4,435 nt of DNA from a virus (lineage: Duplodnaviria; Heunggongvirae; Uroviricota; Caudoviricetes), in IMG/VR virus record IMGVR_UViG_2548876863_000003, positions 1-4,435 of that record. One strand, written 5' to 3'. The notes beneath the pieces are model-generated. The model did no database searches. It had not been told where the DNA came from and worked only from the letters and a program-made list of their open reading frames with translations. The stretch's first letter is position 1. Each line of letters starts with the position of its first letter. A program made the translations under genes and the position numbers. Positions 1 to 4,435 of the stretch are shown here, piece by piece.

Positions 1-20
1 CAAAAACCCGTTATCCGGTG
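1..20 (-). terminator. Possible weak intrinsic terminator downstream of the repressor gene (minus-strand RNA ...CACCGGAUAACGGGUUUUUG)
   Basis: On the minus strand a short GC stem (CCGG/CGGG around a GAUAA loop) is followed by a U5 run. The stem is only 3-4 bp and the element lies at the window edge. No ORF continues leftward on the minus strand: all three frames hit stops at 11-13, 40-42 and 72-74. Confidence 0.2.
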
Positions 21-103
21 AAACGCAGCACCGCTCCGCTTAAGTGAACGGCATTGGACGCTAAGGTCGGGTTATTGTTGTGTGTTTTAGAGTGGTGAGG
101 CTG

Positions 104-757
104 TTAACTAAATGTCTCTTCAGGCCACTGGCTGGCGATAACTTTCCCTACTACGGAACAGCTATCATTGCATGGAATCATTGGATATTGCGGGTTTAGT
201 GGTTGTAGGAACACCTGACCGCTATCCCTGATCAGTTTCTTGAAGGTAAACTCGTCACCACCAAGTCTGGCTATGCAGAAATCACCTGGCTCAACAGCCT
301 GCTCAGGGTCAACGAGAATTAACATCCCGTCAGGAAAGCTTGGCTTGGATCCTGTTGGCGCGGTCATGGAATTACCTTCAACTTCAAGCCAAAACGCACA
401 ATCACTGGCTTTTTTGGTTGTGCTGACCCATCTCTCCGCATCACCTTTGGTAAAGGTTCTAAGCTCAGGCGAGAACATACCGGCCTGAACATGAGAAAAA
501 ACAGGGTACTCATATTGTTTTTTAACGGGGGCAGATGAGTATTCGCCAACAGGTGAAAATGTACCGTCGTGGTTGAATGAGACGTTATCAATACCAAGGT
601 ATTTAAACACCACACCAATCTCGTCAAGAGATGGATGACGAGATCCGCGCAACCAGTGACCAATTCCACCCTGCGTCATACCAAGCTCTTCGGCTAACTT
701 CTCTTGAGTTATGCCGAGCTCTTTCATTCTGGATCTAGCCAGTTCATACCATTTCAT
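104..757 (-). CDS. cI: CI-type prophage repressor: N-terminal XRE-family helix-turn-helix domain plus C-terminal S24 (LexA/CI) self-cleaving peptidase domain
   Basis: The ORF track gives 104..805, but that ORF begins with TTG. I place the start at ATG 757 ([18 protein letters not shown]...) because AAGGG lies 7 nt upstream; ATG 763 and ATG 799 are alternatives. The C-terminal domain carries the S24 hallmarks: a QAG Ala-Gly self-cleavage site, a GNSM serine motif and a GKVIASQW lysine motif. From [12 protein letters not shown] to the end it is near-identical to the phage lambda CI C-terminal domain as recalled from memory (only about 3 substitutions). The N-terminal HTH domain is unrelated to lambda's. 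The stop is TAA at 104-106. Confidence 0.9.
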
Positions 758-874
758 TTTCATACCCTTATTATTACGCTCTGTACTAAAATCATCCATG
801 CACAAGATGTATTTTTTGTTTGCATTCTAAAAGTACATATCGTATTATTGCGTTATGGTTACTATGGAGGGCAT
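758..874. promoter_or_regulatory. Divergent immunity control region (OR-like operators with PR-like and PRM-like promoters) between the repressor and cro
   Basis: Position between divergently transcribed repressor and cro genes, AT-rich. Candidate rightward promoter: -35 TTGCAT (820-825), 17-bp spacer, -10 TATTAT (843-848), then GGAGG (866-870) and cro ATG at 875. Candidate leftward -10 is TAGAAT on the minus strand (829-824). Individual operator sites could not be resolved by eye; there are short inverted AGTACA/TGTACT elements at 782-787 and 832-837 and TATTATT(A/G)CG repeats at 768-779 and 843-852. Confidence 0.5.
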
Positions 875-1090
875 ATGAGCAACCTACGAAAATATCGAGA
901 GTCACTGAATATCTCTCAAACAACACTTGCTAAGGCAGTTGGATGCACACAGGGAGCTATCGGACATTGGGAATCTGGTCGTCGCTTCCCAGACCTTAAA
1001 ACATGCCGTGCTCTTGTTGCGTGCCTAAACAAGTTAGGCGCAAAAGTCAGTCTTGATGACGTGTTCCCGCCGGAACACAAAGCCGCTTAA
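875..1090 (+). CDS. cro: Cro-like small HTH repressor (71 aa, XRE family)
   Basis: ATG at 875 with GGAGG 4 nt upstream; 71 codons; stop TAA 1088-1090. The HTH is ISQTTLAKAVGCTQGAIGHW, and its recognition helix (TQGAIGHW) closely matches that of the divergent repressor (TQGGIGHW), as expected for a repressor/Cro pair sharing operators. The protein ends in KAA. It is the 3' part of tracked ORF 704..1090, whose 5' extension overlaps the repressor start and is not credible. Confidence 0.85.
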   Translation: MSNLRKYRESLNISQTTLAKAVGCTQGAIGHWESGRRFPDLKTCRALVACLNKLGAKVSLDDVFPPEHKAA

Positions 1091-1100
1091 TAAGCGGATC

Positions 1101-1146
1101 CGCTCTTTGTAACAACGGACATTCGTCCTACGTCGCTGAAAAGCGA
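1101..1146 (+). promoter_or_regulatory. nutR-like antitermination site: boxA-like element followed by two short hairpins (boxB candidates)
   Basis: CGCTCTTTGTAACAA (1101-1115) resembles the boxA consensus (CGCTCTTA in lambda, TGCTCTTTAACAA in rrn). Hairpin 1 is GGAC-ATTC-GTCC (1117-1128). Hairpin 2 is TCGCT-GAAA-AGCGA (1133-1146), a 5-bp stem with a GNRA-type loop reminiscent of lambda boxB (GCCCU-GAAAA-AGGGC). The position between cro and cII matches lambda nutR. Confidence 0.45.
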
Positions 1147-1221
1147 GTTCCAAGATATCTGACCAACTAAGGCCATATGCGTTTCCACGCATACCTTTCA
1201 ACTAACTATTCACTACTGGAA

Positions 1222-1254
1222 ATCTTAAGAAATGGAACAAACAAGTTACAGCAA
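1222..1254 (-). promoter_or_regulatory. PRE-like CII-activated leftward promoter embedded in the 5' end of cII
   Basis: The minus strand reads TTGC-TGTAAC-TTGT (1254-1241), a TTGC-N6-TTGY direct repeat like the lambda CII box (TTGC-N6-TTGC). It is followed by 13 nt and then TAAGAT-TTCC (1227-1222 onward), which mirrors the lambda PRE layout as recalled (TTGC-N6-TTGC, 13 nt, AAGTAT-TTCC). The location in codons 4-8 of cII is the same as in lambda. Confidence 0.45.
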
Positions 1255-1528
1255 ACTATCACAGCGCGACGTTGATCGCGCAGAAACAGATTTACTCATC
1301 AACCTGTCAACGCTTACCCAGCGCGGTCTGGCAAAGATGATTGGCTGTCATGAATCGAAGATAAGCAGAACGGACTGGAGATTTATTGCTTCGGTCCTGT
1401 GTGCTTTCGGAATGGCATCAGACATCAGTCCGATTAGCAGGGCTTTTAAGTATGCGCTTGATGGACTCACCAATAAAAAACGCCCGGCGGCAACCGAGCG
1501 TTCTGAACAAATCCAGATGGATTTTTAA
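1232..1528 (+). CDS. cII: CII-like transcriptional activator (98 aa)
   Basis: ATG 1232; stop TAA 1526-1528. The C-terminus LTNKKRPAATERSEQIQMDF is essentially identical to the lambda CII C-terminus (ILTNKKRPAATERSEQIQMEF, from memory). The N-terminal 78 residues are diverged but of the same length and pattern (KISRTDW here versus QISRWKRDW in lambda). Confidence 0.9.
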   Translation: MEQTSYSKLSQRDVDRAETDLLINLSTLTQRGLAKMIGCHESKISRTDWRFIASVLCAFGMASDISPISRAFKYALDGLTNKKRPAATERSEQIQMDF

Positions 1529-1539
1529 CTGCTTTCTAT
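1474..1539 (-). ncRNA. oop: oop-like antisense RNA (about 66 nt) overlapping the cII 3' end, ending at a GC-hairpin plus U6 intrinsic terminator
   Basis: Plus-strand 1472-1524 (CAATAAAAAACGCCCGGCGGCAACCGAGCGTTCTGAACAAATCCAGATGGA) matches, as I recall it, the lambda sequence that encodes the 3' two-thirds of oop RNA. On the minus strand this gives ...CGCUCGGUUGCCGCCGGGCGUUUUUUAUU, a GC-rich hairpin plus U6 with the 3' end near 1474-1480. The predicted 5' end at about 1539 follows from the promoter at 1547-1555. Confidence 0.55.
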
Positions 1540-1546
1540 GGAGTTA

Positions 1547-1555
1547 ATTATGGCA
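1547..1555 (-). promoter_or_regulatory. pO-like extended -10 promoter (TGcCATAAT) for the oop-like RNA, overlapping the HNH gene start codon
   Basis: The minus strand reads TGCCATAAT (1555-1547), i.e. a TGn extension plus CATAAT hexamer. In lambda (from memory) the pO -10 is also CATAAT and also overlaps the start codon of the downstream rightward gene (O, ...TCATTATGACA...). Here the same hexamer overlaps the ATTATG of the HNH gene. Confidence 0.5.
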
Positions 1556-2350
1556 AAAAAACCTACACCAGACCAGGTAAAAAAGATTCGTTCCGGCATT
1601 ACCAAGAAAATACGGTTTGAGGTTTTCAAGCGCGATGGCTTCAAATGCCAGTACTGTGGGAGTTCTGCGCCAGACGTCATCCTTCATGTCGACCATATCA
1701 ACCCAGTTAGCAAGGGTGGCGATAACGACATGATGAACCTTATTACTTCTTGCGATAGTTGTAATGGCGGGAAAAGCGACAAACTGCTCAGCGATAACTC
1801 AATAATGGAAAAGCAAAGGCAGCAACTCCAGGAACTTAATACCAAGCGAGAGCAACTGGAGATGATGATCAAGTGGCGAGATGGTCTTAAGAGCCTGAAA
1901 GACGATGTTGTTGATATTGTCGCTACCAAAATTGACGACTGCATTGCGCCATTTACTGTTAATGACAATGGGCGAAAATCTATCAAGAGATGGCTTCGAA
2001 TATATAAGCTTGAAGAAATCCTCGATGCGATTGAGATTGCTGCAGACAAAAAACTCACCCAAGAAATAACCCATGAGCTTACTGGTGAATTCTTTGAGTA
2101 CATCCCTCGCATAGCAGCGACAAAAAGAAAACCGCCAAAAGAACAAAGGATTCTATACATCAGAGGAATCCTTAAAAACCGCATATATATCAATCAAAAC
2201 CATGTAATGAGTTATCTCAAGGCATGGCTTTCATACGACTTAGATCTCGATGAACTTACTGAGTTTGCGAAAACAGTACCTAACTGGACAACGTTCAAGG
2301 AGTGGGTATCTGAACGCATTCGTGAAGCTCAGGAAGAACTCCCGTACTAA
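1550..2350 (+). CDS. HNH-family endonuclease (about 266 aa) with an N-terminal HNH domain, a coiled-coil-like segment and a roughly 150-aa C-terminal domain of unknown function
   Basis: ATG 1550 with GGAG (1540-1543) 6 nt upstream; the in-frame ATG at 1538 lacks an RBS. The HNH motif is complete: CQYCG...LHVDHINPVSKGGDNDMMNLITSCDSCNGGKSDK (two Cys pairs, H-x-D-H, conserved N). A Q/E/L-rich heptad-like stretch follows (QRQQLQELNTKREQLEMMIKW). Stop TAA 2348-2350. The gene sits between cII and the replication initiator, in a co-directional tightly packed operon. Confidence 0.8.
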   Translation: MAKKPTPDQVKKIRSGITKKIRFEVFKRDGFKCQYCGSSAPDVILHVDHINPVSKGGDNDMMNLITSCDSCNGGKSDKLLSDNSIMEKQRQQLQELNTKREQLEMMIKWRDGLKSLKDDVVDIVATKIDDCIAPFTVNDNGRKSIKRWLRIYKLEEILDAIEIAADKKLTQEITHELTGEFFEYIPRIAATKRKPPKEQRILYIRGILKNRIYINQNHVMSYLKAWLSYDLDLDELTEFAKTVPNWTTFKEWVSERIREAQEELPY

Positions 2351-2361
2351 AGGTGGACAAA

Positions 2362-3249
2362 ATGGCACGTTCAAGAAATATCAAACCAGGCTTTTTCACC
2401 AATGATGAATTAGCTGAGTGTTCTCCATATGCCCGTCTCCTTTTTGCCGGGTTATGGACTATTGCTGACAAAGAAGGGCGGTTGGATGATCGCCCAAAGA
2501 AAATTAAAGCAATGGTACTGCCTTTCGATGATGTGGACTGCAATGATCTGCTTCAGCAACTTCACAGTCACAAATTCATCAACCGATATCAGGTAAATGG
2601 CGGCTCATATATCCAAATCAATAACTGGAAAAAGCACCAGAACCCTCACTGCAAAGAAGCTGCCAGTGAGATACCAGAACCAGTAGAGAACAATAACAGC
2701 ACCATGCAAGTACAGTGCAATGACGATAAAGGGGAAGAGAAGGAGGATGCAGAATCACTTCAAGTCATTGAAAACAATGAAGCACCAGAAAAGCACCATG
2801 CAAGTACAGTGCAAGAACAAGTTGAGAACAGTTTAAATCCTGCTGATTCCCTTAACCTGATTCCTGATTCCCTTAACCTGATTCCTGATTCCCTTTCTAA
2901 CACCCAAGCCGCTGACGCGACTTGTGAAGGGGGTGGGGCTGATGTCCATAAAATTTCAAGTCGCTATGCATTCGAAGGAAATATCGTTCGGTTAAACCAC
3001 AAGGATTACGAAGCATGGAAGCGCCTGTATCCGAACATTGACCTGAATTACGAGCTGGAAAGGCTGGATATCGAATTTAGCCATGAGAAGCCAAAGAACT
3101 GGTTTATCACTGCCAGCCAGAAACTCAGCTACCAGAACAAGCAGGCGTTATCCAGACCGGTACGCAAGGTTGCTAATGGACTTAAGGCTGAAAACTTTGC
3201 CACCAAGGATTACGGACAAACTGAAATGCCTTCATGGGCGCAGGAGTGA
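2362..3249 (+). CDS. Putative replication initiator (functional analogue of lambda O): conserved N-terminal domain, acidic low-complexity linker encoded by repeat DNA, C-terminal domain
   Basis: ATG 2362 with AGGTGG (2351-2356) 5 nt upstream; the tracked ORF starts at GTG 2353. Stop TGA 3247-3249. It lies immediately upstream of, and is translationally coupled to, the DnaC-like loader. The central region (about aa 95-200) is E/N/Q/D-rich low complexity and coincides with the DNA repeats at 2698-2901. The family assignment is not resolved from sequence alone; the protein is not lambda-O-like in sequence. Confidence 0.65.
   Translation: MARSRNIKPGFFTNDELAECSPYARLLFAGLWTIADKEGRLDDRPKKIKAMVLPFDDVDCNDLLQQLHSHKFINRYQVNGGSYIQINNWKKHQNPHCKEAASEIPEPVENNNSTMQVQCNDDKGEEKEDAESLQVIENNEAPEKHHASTVQEQVENSLNPADSLNLIPDSLNLIPDSLSNTQAADATCEGGGADVHKISSRYAFEGNIVRLNHKDYEAWKRLYPNIDLNYELERLDIEFSHEKPKNWFITASQKLSYQNKQALSRPVRKVANGLKAENFATKDYGQTEMPSWAQE
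2698..2720. repeat. Copy 1 of a 23-bp exact direct repeat AGCACCATGCAAGTACAGTGCAA
   Basis: Identical 23-mer at 2698-2720 and 2792-2814, offset by 94 bp (not a multiple of 3), so the two copies are translated in different frames (STMQVQC versus KHHASTVQ). The conservation is therefore at the DNA level. Confidence 0.8.
2792..2814. repeat. Copy 2 of the 23-bp exact direct repeat AGCACCATGCAAGTACAGTGCAA
   Basis: See copy 1; exact match read directly from the sequence. Confidence 0.8.
2843..2901. repeat. Tandem 21-bp repeats (CTGATTCCCTTAACCTGATTC x2 plus a partial third copy), an iteron-like array
   Basis: Units at 2843-2863 and 2864-2884 are identical; the third (2885-2901) diverges after CTGATTCCCTT. 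The core CTGATTC occurs five times (2843, 2857, 2864, 2878, 2885) with alternating 14 and 7 bp spacing. The array encodes DSLNLIP-DSLNLIP-DSLSN in the initiator linker. Confidence 0.8.
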
Positions 3250-3251
3250 AC

Positions 3252-4097
3252 ATGACGCTGGATGAAAAGATCTCCCAACTGGAGAAAAAACTTGCAGAAT
3301 TGAGTTCTCCGCCAATTGCTATCGAGCATACAGCTGTAGAAATTGGCTCTGGCATCTGTGAAAAACATGGTGAGTTTGAGCAGCGTAACCGTTACTCGAC
3401 TGGGCCAATTAAGTTTGCCTCAAGACCTAGCGAATGCCCGGAATGCATGAGAGATGAGCTTATTCGGCTACAGGCAGAGAAGATTAAAATCGACGAGGAA
3501 TCACGTAAGCGCAATGTCGAGTTTCTGTTGAATAATCTTGATATTCCTGAACGATTCAAGGGTTGCACACTGCAGAACTACGAGCCAGTCAACGACGATG
3601 CAAAGAGAGTGCTCAGGGTGTGTCAGGCATACGCCAGCAAATGGCCTGAGAGGTTACAGAAAGGCGGTGGGCTGGTTATGTGTGGAAAGCCTGGTACTGG
3701 AAAGAATCATCTTGCACTGGCTATCGCCCGGCACGCAATTACGGAACATCAAAGCTCAGCTATTTTCACAACGGCGCTGAAAATTGCCAGAGAATATAAA
3801 TCAACATGGTCGAAAAACTCCACCCGCACAGAGGATGAAGTGATCCGACAGTTCACTAAACCTGACCTGCTAATTATCGATGAGGTTGGTGTGCAGTTTG
3901 GAAGCGAGGCGGAAAAGATGATCATGTTCGAAATCATCAACACCCGCTACGAGCGCATGAAGCCAACAATCCTGATTAGCAACCAGAGCAAAGATGAACT
4001 GTCTGCATTCATTGGTGAGCGTGTTATTGACAGGATGAATGATGGCGGCGGATGCACCCTTGCGTTTACATGGGATAGTTACAGGAGCAGATCGTGA
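3252..4097 (+). CDS. DnaC/IstB-family AAA+ ATPase, putative replicative helicase loader
   Basis: ATG 3252 with AGGAG (3242-3246) 5 nt upstream; the tracked ATG 3234 lies inside the upstream gene. Walker A is GKPGTGKNHLALAI and Walker B is LLIIDEVG; the C-terminal region (ERVIDRM...SYR) is DnaC-like. The N-terminal region has a C-x2-H...C-x2-C cluster (CEKH...CPEC). Stop TGA 4095-4097. Confidence 0.9.
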   Translation: MTLDEKISQLEKKLAELSSPPIAIEHTAVEIGSGICEKHGEFEQRNRYSTGPIKFASRPSECPECMRDELIRLQAEKIKIDEESRKRNVEFLLNNLDIPERFKGCTLQNYEPVNDDAKRVLRVCQAYASKWPERLQKGGGLVMCGKPGTGKNHLALAIARHAITEHQSSAIFTTALKIAREYKSTWSKNSTRTEDEVIRQFTKPDLLIIDEVGVQFGSEAEKMIMFEIINTRYERMKPTILISNQSKDELSAFIGERVIDRMNDGGGCTLAFTWDSYRSRS

Positions 4098-4384
4098 CTG
4101 GAAAAGAAATCATCCTGGAATATCTGAAAACTCATGAACAATTCTCCCCACATGAATTAGCACTGATTACCGGAATACCAAATAACAGAATCGCTCAAGC
4201 AGCAAGGCATATGGTGAAACAAGGGCATTTGAGTGTTGTTGAGCGTAAGTGGAAGACGGTTATTTATGCAAAACGCAAAGTGAAGAAGGAGCCAATTAAA
4301 AGAAATCCAGATGGTACGGGGTGGGGATGTGCAAATCCAATGACGGCGTTTATTAATAGGGCGCTTATGGAGGTAAGGCAATGA
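4094..4384 (+). CDS. ren: Ren-like protein (96 aa)
   Basis: GTG 4094 overlaps the DnaC-like stop (GTGA), with AGGAG (4083-4087) 6 nt upstream. The N-terminus MTGKEIILEYLKTHEQF resembles lambda Ren (MTGKEAIIHYLGTHNSF, from memory); length (96 aa) and position directly after the helicase-loader gene match lambda ren. Stop TGA 4382-4384. Confidence 0.6.
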   Translation: MTGKEIILEYLKTHEQFSPHELALITGIPNNRIAQAARHMVKQGHLSVVERKWKTVIYAKRKVKKEPIKRNPDGTGWGCANPMTAFINRALMEVRQ

Positions 4385-4435
4385 ATAAAAAACAATTAGC
4401 CATTCTCGAAAAGGCATGGGATGCACAAATATCAT
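4381..4435 (+). CDS. 5' end of a downstream gene of unknown function (MNKKQLAILEKAWDAQIS...), truncated by the window edge
   Basis: ATG 4381 overlaps the ren stop (ATGA) and has GGAGG (4369-4373) 7 nt upstream. The frame is open to the window end. Only 18 codons are visible, and they do not resemble lambda NinB as I recall it. Confidence 0.5.
   Translation, partial: MNKKQLAILEKAWDAQIS

Follow-up and report, generated by a model that had tools for sequence, protein, structure and literature searches.

The window analysed here is a 4,435-nt stretch of viral DNA (Caudoviricetes; IMG/VR record IMGVR_UViG_2548876863_000003, positions 1 to 4,435), and it is the immunity-to-replication segment of a lambdoid prophage. 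Our subject is one gene of this segment, located between cII and the gene for a replication initiator, for which an original prediction made from the DNA letters had proposed a 266-aa HNH endonuclease with an uncharacterised C-terminal domain at 1550-2350. The open reading frame (ORF) and a match to Pfam PF01844 (E = 1e-13) bear this out. We refer to the gene and its homologs as HNH-CTD, for the nuclease and the C-terminal domain (CTD), and to the position ahead of the initiator gene as the slot. The features on which most of the argument depends are the following.

1232..1528, plus strand: cII, the left flank of the slot (Pfam Phage_CII, E = 7.8e-35)
1550..2350, plus strand: HNH-CTD gene, 266 aa plus stop (phrog_16986, E = 1e-151)
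1598..1795, plus strand: HNH (His-Me finger) nuclease domain, about residues 17-82
1796..1942, plus strand: single long helix, residues 83-131, with a predicted local distance difference test score (pLDDT) of about 84-89
1943..2347, plus strand: seven-helix C-terminal domain, residues 132-266 (bundle 139-263)
2351-2356, plus strand: AGGTGG, ribosome-binding site of the initiator
ATG 2362, end 3249, plus strand: replication initiator, 295 aa (phrog_17247, E = 5.5e-191)

The HNH-CTD gene starts with the ATG at 1550-1552, 21 nt past the cII stop codon (1526-1528) and with GGAG ahead of it at 1540-1543, and it stops with the TAA at 2348-2350, after which come the AGGTGG and the ATG of the initiator. 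Because of this spacing to cII and to the initiator, the gene is co-oriented and tightly packed with the early operon, as had been proposed. An alternative in-frame ATG at 1538 would give a product of 270 aa; it has no comparable ribosome-binding site, and the database copies are of 266 aa, including the identical proteins of E. coli and of phages Dewey and Louie, which carry the label 'HNH endonuclease'. A scan of positions 1100-2500 for sigma-70-like promoters found none, which leaves the gene without a promoter-like site belonging to it alone. By eye it had been judged richer in AT than its neighbours, and this impression did not survive measurement. Its GC content is 42.6% versus 44.9% for the window, 68 of 364 sliding 801-nt windows are equally low or lower, and GC at the third codon position (GC3) equals that of the initiator (45.3% versus 45.6%), which gives no support to a compositionally foreign gene. 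The low GC is found at codon position 2 and reflects amino-acid composition.

Residues 33-77 of the protein match the Pfam HNH model PF01844 with 51.6 bits (cut-off 21.4), and PF14279 is matched with 46.5 bits against a cut-off of 27.5. We aligned 41 homologs, which are 45-86% identical, and found eight residues of this domain to be invariant: C33, C36, C68 and C71, which are zinc ligands, and D48-H49, N63 and N72, which belong to the catalytic site. The beta-beta-alpha metal fold of the HNH / His-Me finger nucleases is present as well. Loss of the catalytic residues on alignment, named beforehand as the result that would count against a nuclease, was not seen, and the catalytic motif is also kept in all of the 83 loci described below. 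The protein is predicted to be an HNH nuclease of the Cas9/IscB type with its catalytic site intact.

Outside the HNH domain, about 185 aa have no match in Pfam. An AlphaFold2 model built from the 41-sequence alignment (mean pLDDT 86.6) consists of the nuclease domain, the long helix and the C-terminal bundle. The helix has its own invariant residues (R100, Q102, M105 and W109, in the motif REQLEMMxxWR), and so has the C-terminal domain (Y203, I207, R211 and W246, with the motif YxRGIxRNR). The spacing Y203xxxI207xxxR211 recalls the YxxxIxxxW motif of DnaD; the DnaD resemblance is not above helical-bundle background, and comparison of the domain with known folds gave no convincing match, so that the description of this part as uncharacterised stands. 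Among the top 150 matches to the tail region, about 20 are proteins of 400-600 aa in which the HNH domain and the tail are followed by an extension of 150-340 aa (P0125, P0137, P0202, P0220 and P0266 are examples). These long relatives were rejected as initiator fusions since neither the Pfam nor the PHROG models of initiators match the extensions, and short 'tail-only' matches were set aside as N-terminally truncated fragments.

The left boundary of the gene is a sharp one. Relative to lambda (aligned over 38329-38769), only the final ~55 nt of cII, up to window position 1521, are 100% identical. In 1932 of 5426 complete E. coli genomes there is a match to the cII part of the window, and these matches end at query positions 422-430, that is, window 1521-1529. 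The left joint is thus the cII stop codon, where lambda-like identity had been predicted to end. The HNH gene is found in 18 of the 5426 genomes, each time at 99% identity or more, and the full-length initiator likewise in 18; the sole lower-identity copy in E. coli is end-truncated, 97% identical, and lies on a 6-kb plasmid contig of one of the 18 strains. Near-identical DNA is carried by phages Dewey and Louie (98.9% identity), by the Shiga toxin (Stx) 1a-converting phage Stx1_121427 (99.6% over window 1100-4435), and by prophages of Shiga toxin-producing E. coli and Stx1a phage LC645425. In the three E. coli strains 0H24, 0H26 and 0H25 (NZ_CP081778.1, NZ_CP081786.1 and NZ_CP081694.1), the gene is present both on the chromosome and on circular 'plasmid' records of 30-39 kb, which may represent prophage DNA that has been excised or is replicating.

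The original prediction had described a lambda layout in which a nuclease gene sits where O begins, with the initiator pushed downstream. The precise joint is real, but the module to its right is not that of O and P, since the initiator belongs with several 'replication initiation protein' PHROGs that are not O-like (phrog_17247, and among the further matches phrog_16167 and phrog_1408) and is followed by a DnaC/IstB-like loader. With the joint falling between cII and the HNH gene, the latter is the first gene of the replication module and not an insertion into the lambda cII-O junction. In contig L013 the cI, cro and cII genes differ and the HNH, initiator and DnaC-like genes are the same. 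The HNH gene travels with a non-lambda module made up of itself, the initiator and the DnaC-like loader.

At the right boundary, alignment of the cassettes showed that the flanks align from the initiator ATG onward and that the cassettes ahead of it are unrelated. The first 12 nt of the initiator, ATGGCACGTTCA, are linked to the type of cassette and are fixed in 8 of 8 distinct HNH-linked alleles, however diverged the remainder of the gene, which places the right joint in initiator codons 2-4. Recombination beside the gene is also visible between Pseudomonas phages LC3I3 (L002) and P27 (L003), whose HNH-CTD proteins are 99.6% identical. Here a DNA identity of 97.8% spans the HNH gene and is lost ~22 nt into the initiator gene, to return where the iterons begin; the two phages are ~97% identical across cII, HNH-CTD, the C-terminal half of the initiator and the helicase, and only the N-terminal region of the initiator has been swapped.

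We then compared the slot in 80 close relatives, viral contigs with an initiator 73-99% identical to that of the window. The slot holds HNH-CTD in 10 of them, a T5orf172 protein in 61 and, in 9, an unrelated protein of 134-143 aa of the HK639 gp53 type (phrog_30464), and all three occupants were found at about 90% initiator identity. HNH-CTD is therefore sporadic with exact boundaries (the cII stop codon and initiator codons 1-4), which is what the proposed comparison of junctions shows, but the alleles from which it is absent are filled by one of the other two genes. This three-way cassette polymorphism between cII and initiator occurs in enterobacterial lambdoid and Stx phages. The T5orf172/MUG113 proteins (GIY-YIG clan) are 190-296 aa long and match Pfam with E about 1e-15; their gene has a stop codon that overlaps the initiator ATG, and most of them end in a conserved motif, GIYGPxxPxxF. 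These proteins (for example L097:2264-2998, and 60 other loci within L090-L169) have a tail of ~110 aa to which no function is assigned. The genes found in the slot of two named phages are listed here.

L007:2597-3001: gp53 of phage HK639, 134 aa (phrog_30464), without a nuclease signature
L008:2456-2992: gp27 of Hafnia phage yong1, 178 aa, matching phrog_3007 (annotated RusA-like) and a sliding-clamp-like PHROG

More distant phages with the same initiator family have nothing upstream of it (Ralstonia phage RSK1), a 64-aa ORF (F10) or an 'antirepressor' (Fyn8). HK639 gp53, yong1 gp27 and a Bordetella phage gp58 were considered as copies of the C-terminal domain lacking the HNH part, and were rejected with hhalign probabilities below 1%; a C-terminal domain common to HNH-CTD and the T5orf172 proteins was rejected too (probability 0.4%). 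The slot proteins have no similarity beyond membership of nuclease superfamilies. Judging from these genomes, HNH-CTD is dispensable for this initiator family.

The context of the family as a whole is far more constant. A protein search gave 1586 relatives (E <= 1e-5), named, if at all, only 'HNH endonuclease' or 'hypothetical protein', in Enterobacterales, Pseudomonas, Tolumonas and a Desulfobulbaceae genome, and a search with the tail region gave 807 cluster representatives; the corresponding PHROG, phrog_16986, is annotated 'unknown function'. Six annotated phages (E. coli Dewey, Pseudomonas LC3I3 and P27, Oenococcus Krappator27, Komagataeibacter phiKX1 and Vibrio 219E41) carry HNH-CTD directly upstream of, and often overlapping, the gene for a 264-360 aa protein that is annotated or recognisable as a replication initiator, DnaD-like or winged-helix protein. 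To these we added the best 80 of at least 526 confirmed IMG/VR loci, a sample that covers the nearer half of the family as measured from the query. In all 83 loci with enough downstream sequence, HNH-CTD is followed directly by an ORF of 200 aa or more, most commonly with an overlap of 8, 4 or 1 nt or a gap of 2-10 nt. By sequence or PHROG match, 81 of the 83 downstream proteins are linked to initiators, DnaD-like proteins or replisome organisers, and only two (L072 and L076) have no label. The initiator family of the window accounts for 37 of the 62 distinct downstream proteins first picked, and the remaining ones are matched either by PHROGs of O-like, DnaD-like, primosomal or replisome-organiser proteins or by the Pfam models HTH_36, DnaB_2, DnaT and DUF1376. 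Single-linkage clustering merged 77 of the 83 downstream initiators through shared domains and could therefore not be used to count initiator families, which we told apart by their PHROG and Pfam labels. The upstream neighbours are varied, those of 77 loci forming 51 clusters. HNH-CTD proteins that are ~55% identical adjoin initiators without detectable similarity to each other.

With four enterobacterial homologs for comparison, both halves of HNH-CTD have a ratio of nonsynonymous to synonymous substitution (dN/dS) of 0.03-0.07, and the adjacent initiator has one of 0.12-0.18. HNH-CTD is thus under strong purifying selection, stronger than that on the initiator. The family is phage-restricted. 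A plasmid collection gave only six records, of 6-39 kb, non-mobilizable and from E. coli and Salmonella, and occurrence on true plasmids beside Rep genes was rejected because these records are probably phage DNA.

In two phages an HNH domain is found inside the initiator itself. The P27 initiator (L003:4431-5513) has one between its N-terminal DNA-binding domain and its C-terminal half (phrog_5718; 38% identical to the HNH domain of the window), and P27 carries this protein in addition to the upstream HNH-CTD gene. The initiator of Bordetella phage IFTN4 (L009:3001-3831) likewise has an HNH domain built in. The architecture of the P27 initiator resembles that of an origin-directed nuclease.

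Our preferred account of the exact joints and the alternating cassettes is that HNH-CTD is a free-standing homing-endonuclease-like cassette at the left edge of a portable replication module. We hold this tentatively, with a probability of about 0.42; among the three roles offered by the original prediction it is the best supported. The gene would be transcribed early from pR and translated just before the initiator. If a related phage or prophage with another cassette were present in the cell, the nuclease would nick or cut its DNA in or near the replication region, and recombinational repair from the HNH-bearing genome would copy the cassette together with a short or long flank, a presumed gene conversion from which any benefit to the phage is equally conjectural. 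The gene would then stay at the boundary of regulation and replication, mosaic joints would arise on both sides of it, and the adjacent initiator or cII could be exchanged with the nuclease remaining in place. The constant neighbour would follow from the conserved order of the regulation and replication modules, since homologous repair alone would move the gene.

Several observations favour this proposal, namely the facultative distribution, the exact joints, the alternation with T5orf172, the recombination breaks beside the gene and the mosaic boundary in L013, together with a catalytic set that is intact and selected (41 homologs, 83 of 83 loci, dN/dS 0.03-0.07). Both HNH and T5orf172 have been described as families of phage homing endonucleases whose genes adjoin essential ones and mark the limits of genetic exchange (PMC10448857).

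Other observations weigh against homing. None of the 80 close relatives has an empty slot, and the only phage without an upstream gene is the distant RSK1. Classical homing expects empty, cassette-less alleles, and selfish endonuclease genes often decay. HNH-CTD does not look decayed, as all 18 E. coli copies are at least 99% identical, and selection on it (0.03-0.07) is stronger than on an essential initiator (0.12-0.18). Searches with Pfam and by fold found no NUMOD, IENR1, AP2, zinc finger or helix-turn-helix (HTH) module in the protein, and a C-terminal domain that is conserved beside unrelated initiators and has none of the usual DNA-binding modules is unlike a domain that tracks a target. 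The gene also lacks a promoter-like site and is translationally packed with the initiator (overlaps of 8, 4 or 1 nt being commonest), and the HNH domains fused inside some initiators hint at a functional tie between the nuclease and the initiator.

Such a tie is the substance of a second explanation, in which HNH-CTD is an optional replication accessory that acts on the DNA of its own phage alongside the initiator. It might, for example, nick at or near the unwound origin or process early replication intermediates and so supply a 3' end or a break that favours a switch from theta to rolling-circle or recombination-dependent replication, and the T5orf172 protein of sister phages would be a non-orthologous replacement doing the same job. 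The synteny in 83 of 83 loci would be accounted for, with 81 downstream proteins of several families linked to initiators and 51 clusters of upstream neighbours in 77 loci, as would the translational packing, the company that ~55% identical HNH-CTD proteins keep with mutually dissimilar initiators, and a dN/dS of about 0.05 in both domains, below that of the initiator. The slot is filled in 80 of 80 close relatives, in 71 of them by a nuclease-superfamily protein, the P27 and Bordetella phage initiators contain an HNH domain, and the family is confined to phages. However, the same initiator family works without HNH-CTD, with nothing upstream in RSK1 and a small protein lacking a nuclease signature in HK639 and nine IMG/VR relatives. 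Outside their nuclease domains HNH-CTD and the T5orf172 proteins are dissimilar (hhalign 0.4%), none of the longer family members proved to be a fusion with an initiator, and the DnaD likeness of the C-terminal domain lies within the helical-bundle background. Nor did a literature search return any replication system that combines an HNH nuclease with an O-type or DnaD-type initiator. We rate this explanation below homing, as its main competitor. The result that the original prediction had set against itself, namely a gene that belongs to the conserved replication core of related phages and whose function is known, was found by half: the linkage to initiators holds in 83 of 83 loci, but the gene has no known function and is dispensable.

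A bolder form of the accessory explanation, which we consider less likely still, is that HNH-CTD and T5orf172 proteins make up a hitherto unrecognised class of initiator-coupled replication nucleases, translated along with the origin-binding protein, in which a nick at or near the origin would trigger the change from theta to rolling-circle or recombination-dependent replication. This would explain the strict synteny, the selection stronger than that on the initiator and the initiators with internal HNH domains. We know of no settled mechanism for the theta-to-rolling-circle switch in temperate phages.

The third explanation is that the nuclease serves as a weapon between elements, used in lytic growth against satellites and co-infecting or resident phages to the benefit of the phage that encodes it. 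The origin-directed nuclease Odn, a homing-derived nuclease that cuts the origin of a rival, is a precedent (PMC10448857). Expression would be early, with the replication genes; the nuclease domain of the T5orf172 slot protein matches two models of candidate defence systems, PDC-S57 (E = 3.7e-24) and PD-Lambda-1; and strong purifying selection is compatible with a benefit to the phage. However, the protein of the window has no initiator-type DNA-binding domain to guide it to an origin, its PADLOC matches (PtuB, best with E = 9e-8, ZorE and Cas9) are weak and confined to the HNH domain, the window encodes no partner of the PtuA, Zor or Cas kind, and no candidate target element was identified. 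Altogether we find this improbable. A defence nuclease expressed from the prophage, which had also been suggested, is unlikely: the rightward operon is repressed by cI, 1100-2500 contains no promoter-like site from which the repressed prophage might express the gene, and the defence matches are to the HNH domain only.

Finally, it is very improbable that the nuclease activity is vestigial and that the protein serves the early operon by binding DNA or as a regulator. Some HNH-fold proteins are non-catalytic, and IcmJ/DotN is among the structural and sequence matches, but here none of the catalytic and zinc residues varies among 41 homologs, they are intact in 83 of 83 loci, and dN/dS is as low in the nuclease domain as in the remainder of the protein.

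The other features of the window are as follows.

104-760, minus strand: cI-like repressor, HTH plus S24 peptidase
875-1090: cro-like HTH gene
1477..1504, minus strand: oop-like intrinsic terminator, a 12-pair stem and then a T run, in the 3' end of cII
2843..2895, plus strand: probable origin iterons, three exact copies of the 11-nt core CTGATTCCCTT, 21 nt apart
3234..4097, plus strand: DnaC-like helicase loader (Pfam IstB_IS21, E = 1.8e-18; also Bac_DnaA)
4094-4384: small MarR/Ren-like gene

The packing seen around the HNH gene continues downstream, where the initiator and DnaC-like genes overlap by 16 nt (3234-3249) and the DnaC-like and MarR/Ren-like genes by the 4 nt GTGA (4094-4097). The loader is also matched by phrog_50, 'DnaC-like helicase loader' (E = 3.5e-86), and its N-terminus contains Cys and His residues (CEKHGEF...CPEC) that may bind zinc. 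The three copies of the core repeat lie inside the initiator gene, where they encode DSLNLIP repeats, and a 43-nt direct repeat, 81% identical between its copies at 2678 and 2772 (2678-2814), lies ahead of them. The Pseudomonas homologs have PDSLIPDSLIPE at the equivalent position of the initiator gene. By analogy with the lambda origin inside O, these repeats are probably the iterons of a replication origin located in the linker of the initiator. The oop-like terminator falls within the ~55-nt stretch that is 100% identical to lambda. The start codon of the HNH gene is part of the sequence ATTATG (1547-1552), whose minus-strand reading, CATAAT, resembles a -10 hexamer; in lambda, too, ATTATG is found at the O start. 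An oop-type antisense RNA of ~70 nt may thus have been retained in spite of the different downstream gene, the analogy being with lambda; the scan detected no -35 element or promoter for it, and an Rfam scan of the window found no structured RNA.

The annotation of these proteins as HNH in databases is already known, as is the occurrence of nuclease genes at module boundaries of phages. The distinctive tail, the strict position ahead of the initiator across phyla and the three-way cassette polymorphism at the cII/initiator junction appear to be undescribed in the literature searched, where we found no account of the family, nor of any HNH nuclease tied to an initiator. If the gene is of the homing type, it would be a clear case, in temperate phages, of nuclease cassettes that mark, and probably create, the joint between immunity and replication, and a mechanistic handle on the mosaicism of lambdoid and Stx phages. 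If it acts in replication, a large uncharacterised family would define a new accessory step in phage replication. In either case phrog_16986 gains a rule of context, directly upstream of an initiator, and cultivable phages (Dewey, Louie, JBD44 and LC3I3) are on hand.

Among known systems, the free-standing homing endonuclease genes of phages (HNH and T5orf172/GIY-YIG families, such as the T4 mob and seg genes and those of ICP1; Barth, Dunham & Seed 2023, PMC10448857) resemble HNH-CTD in nuclease family, in having an essential gene as neighbour at a boundary of genetic exchange, in sporadic distribution and exact boundaries, and in a slot shared with a second nuclease family. HNH-CTD differs from them in that no empty alleles are seen and that a conserved helical domain takes the place of a NUMOD, IENR or zinc-finger module. 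Its context is constant across phyla (83 of 83 loci), whereas the T5orf172 and IPA-HNH families that have been surveyed sit in varied neighbourhoods (PMC10448857), and it is under strong purifying selection and translationally packed. The Cas9/IscB-type HNH domains and the small nickases (Gme HNH 4h9d, GVE2 HNH 5h0o and EcoKMcrA 6ghc) are unrelated to its other 185 aa, and HNH-CTD has no RuvC domain, guide RNA partner or modification-reading domain.

The terminase-associated HNH proteins of cos phages, of the HK97 gp74 type, are about 100-130 aa long, and their genes have those for terminase and portal as neighbours at the end of the genome. HNH-CTD is like them in being a small phage HNH protein and a fixed neighbour of the genes of a core machine, but its gene lies in the early replication operon, between cII and the initiator, and it has 266 aa in three parts, with a distinct C-terminal domain. 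Odn of ICP1, which joins a T5orf172 nuclease domain to a RepA_N domain, the DNA-binding part of a replication initiator (PMC10448857), is also a homing-type nuclease tied to initiator functions; its closest parallel in our data is the HNH-containing initiators of P27 and the Bordetella phage, whereas in the window the nuclease has no initiator-type DNA-binding domain and the nuclease and initiator are encoded by separate, adjacent genes. There is also a likeness in gene order to cII-oop-O-P of lambda, with which the window shares the succession of regulator and replication genes, an identical cII 3' end with its oop terminator and the ATTATG at the start of the next gene, but here the replication genes are not O and P, and an extra gene, that of the nuclease, heads the module.

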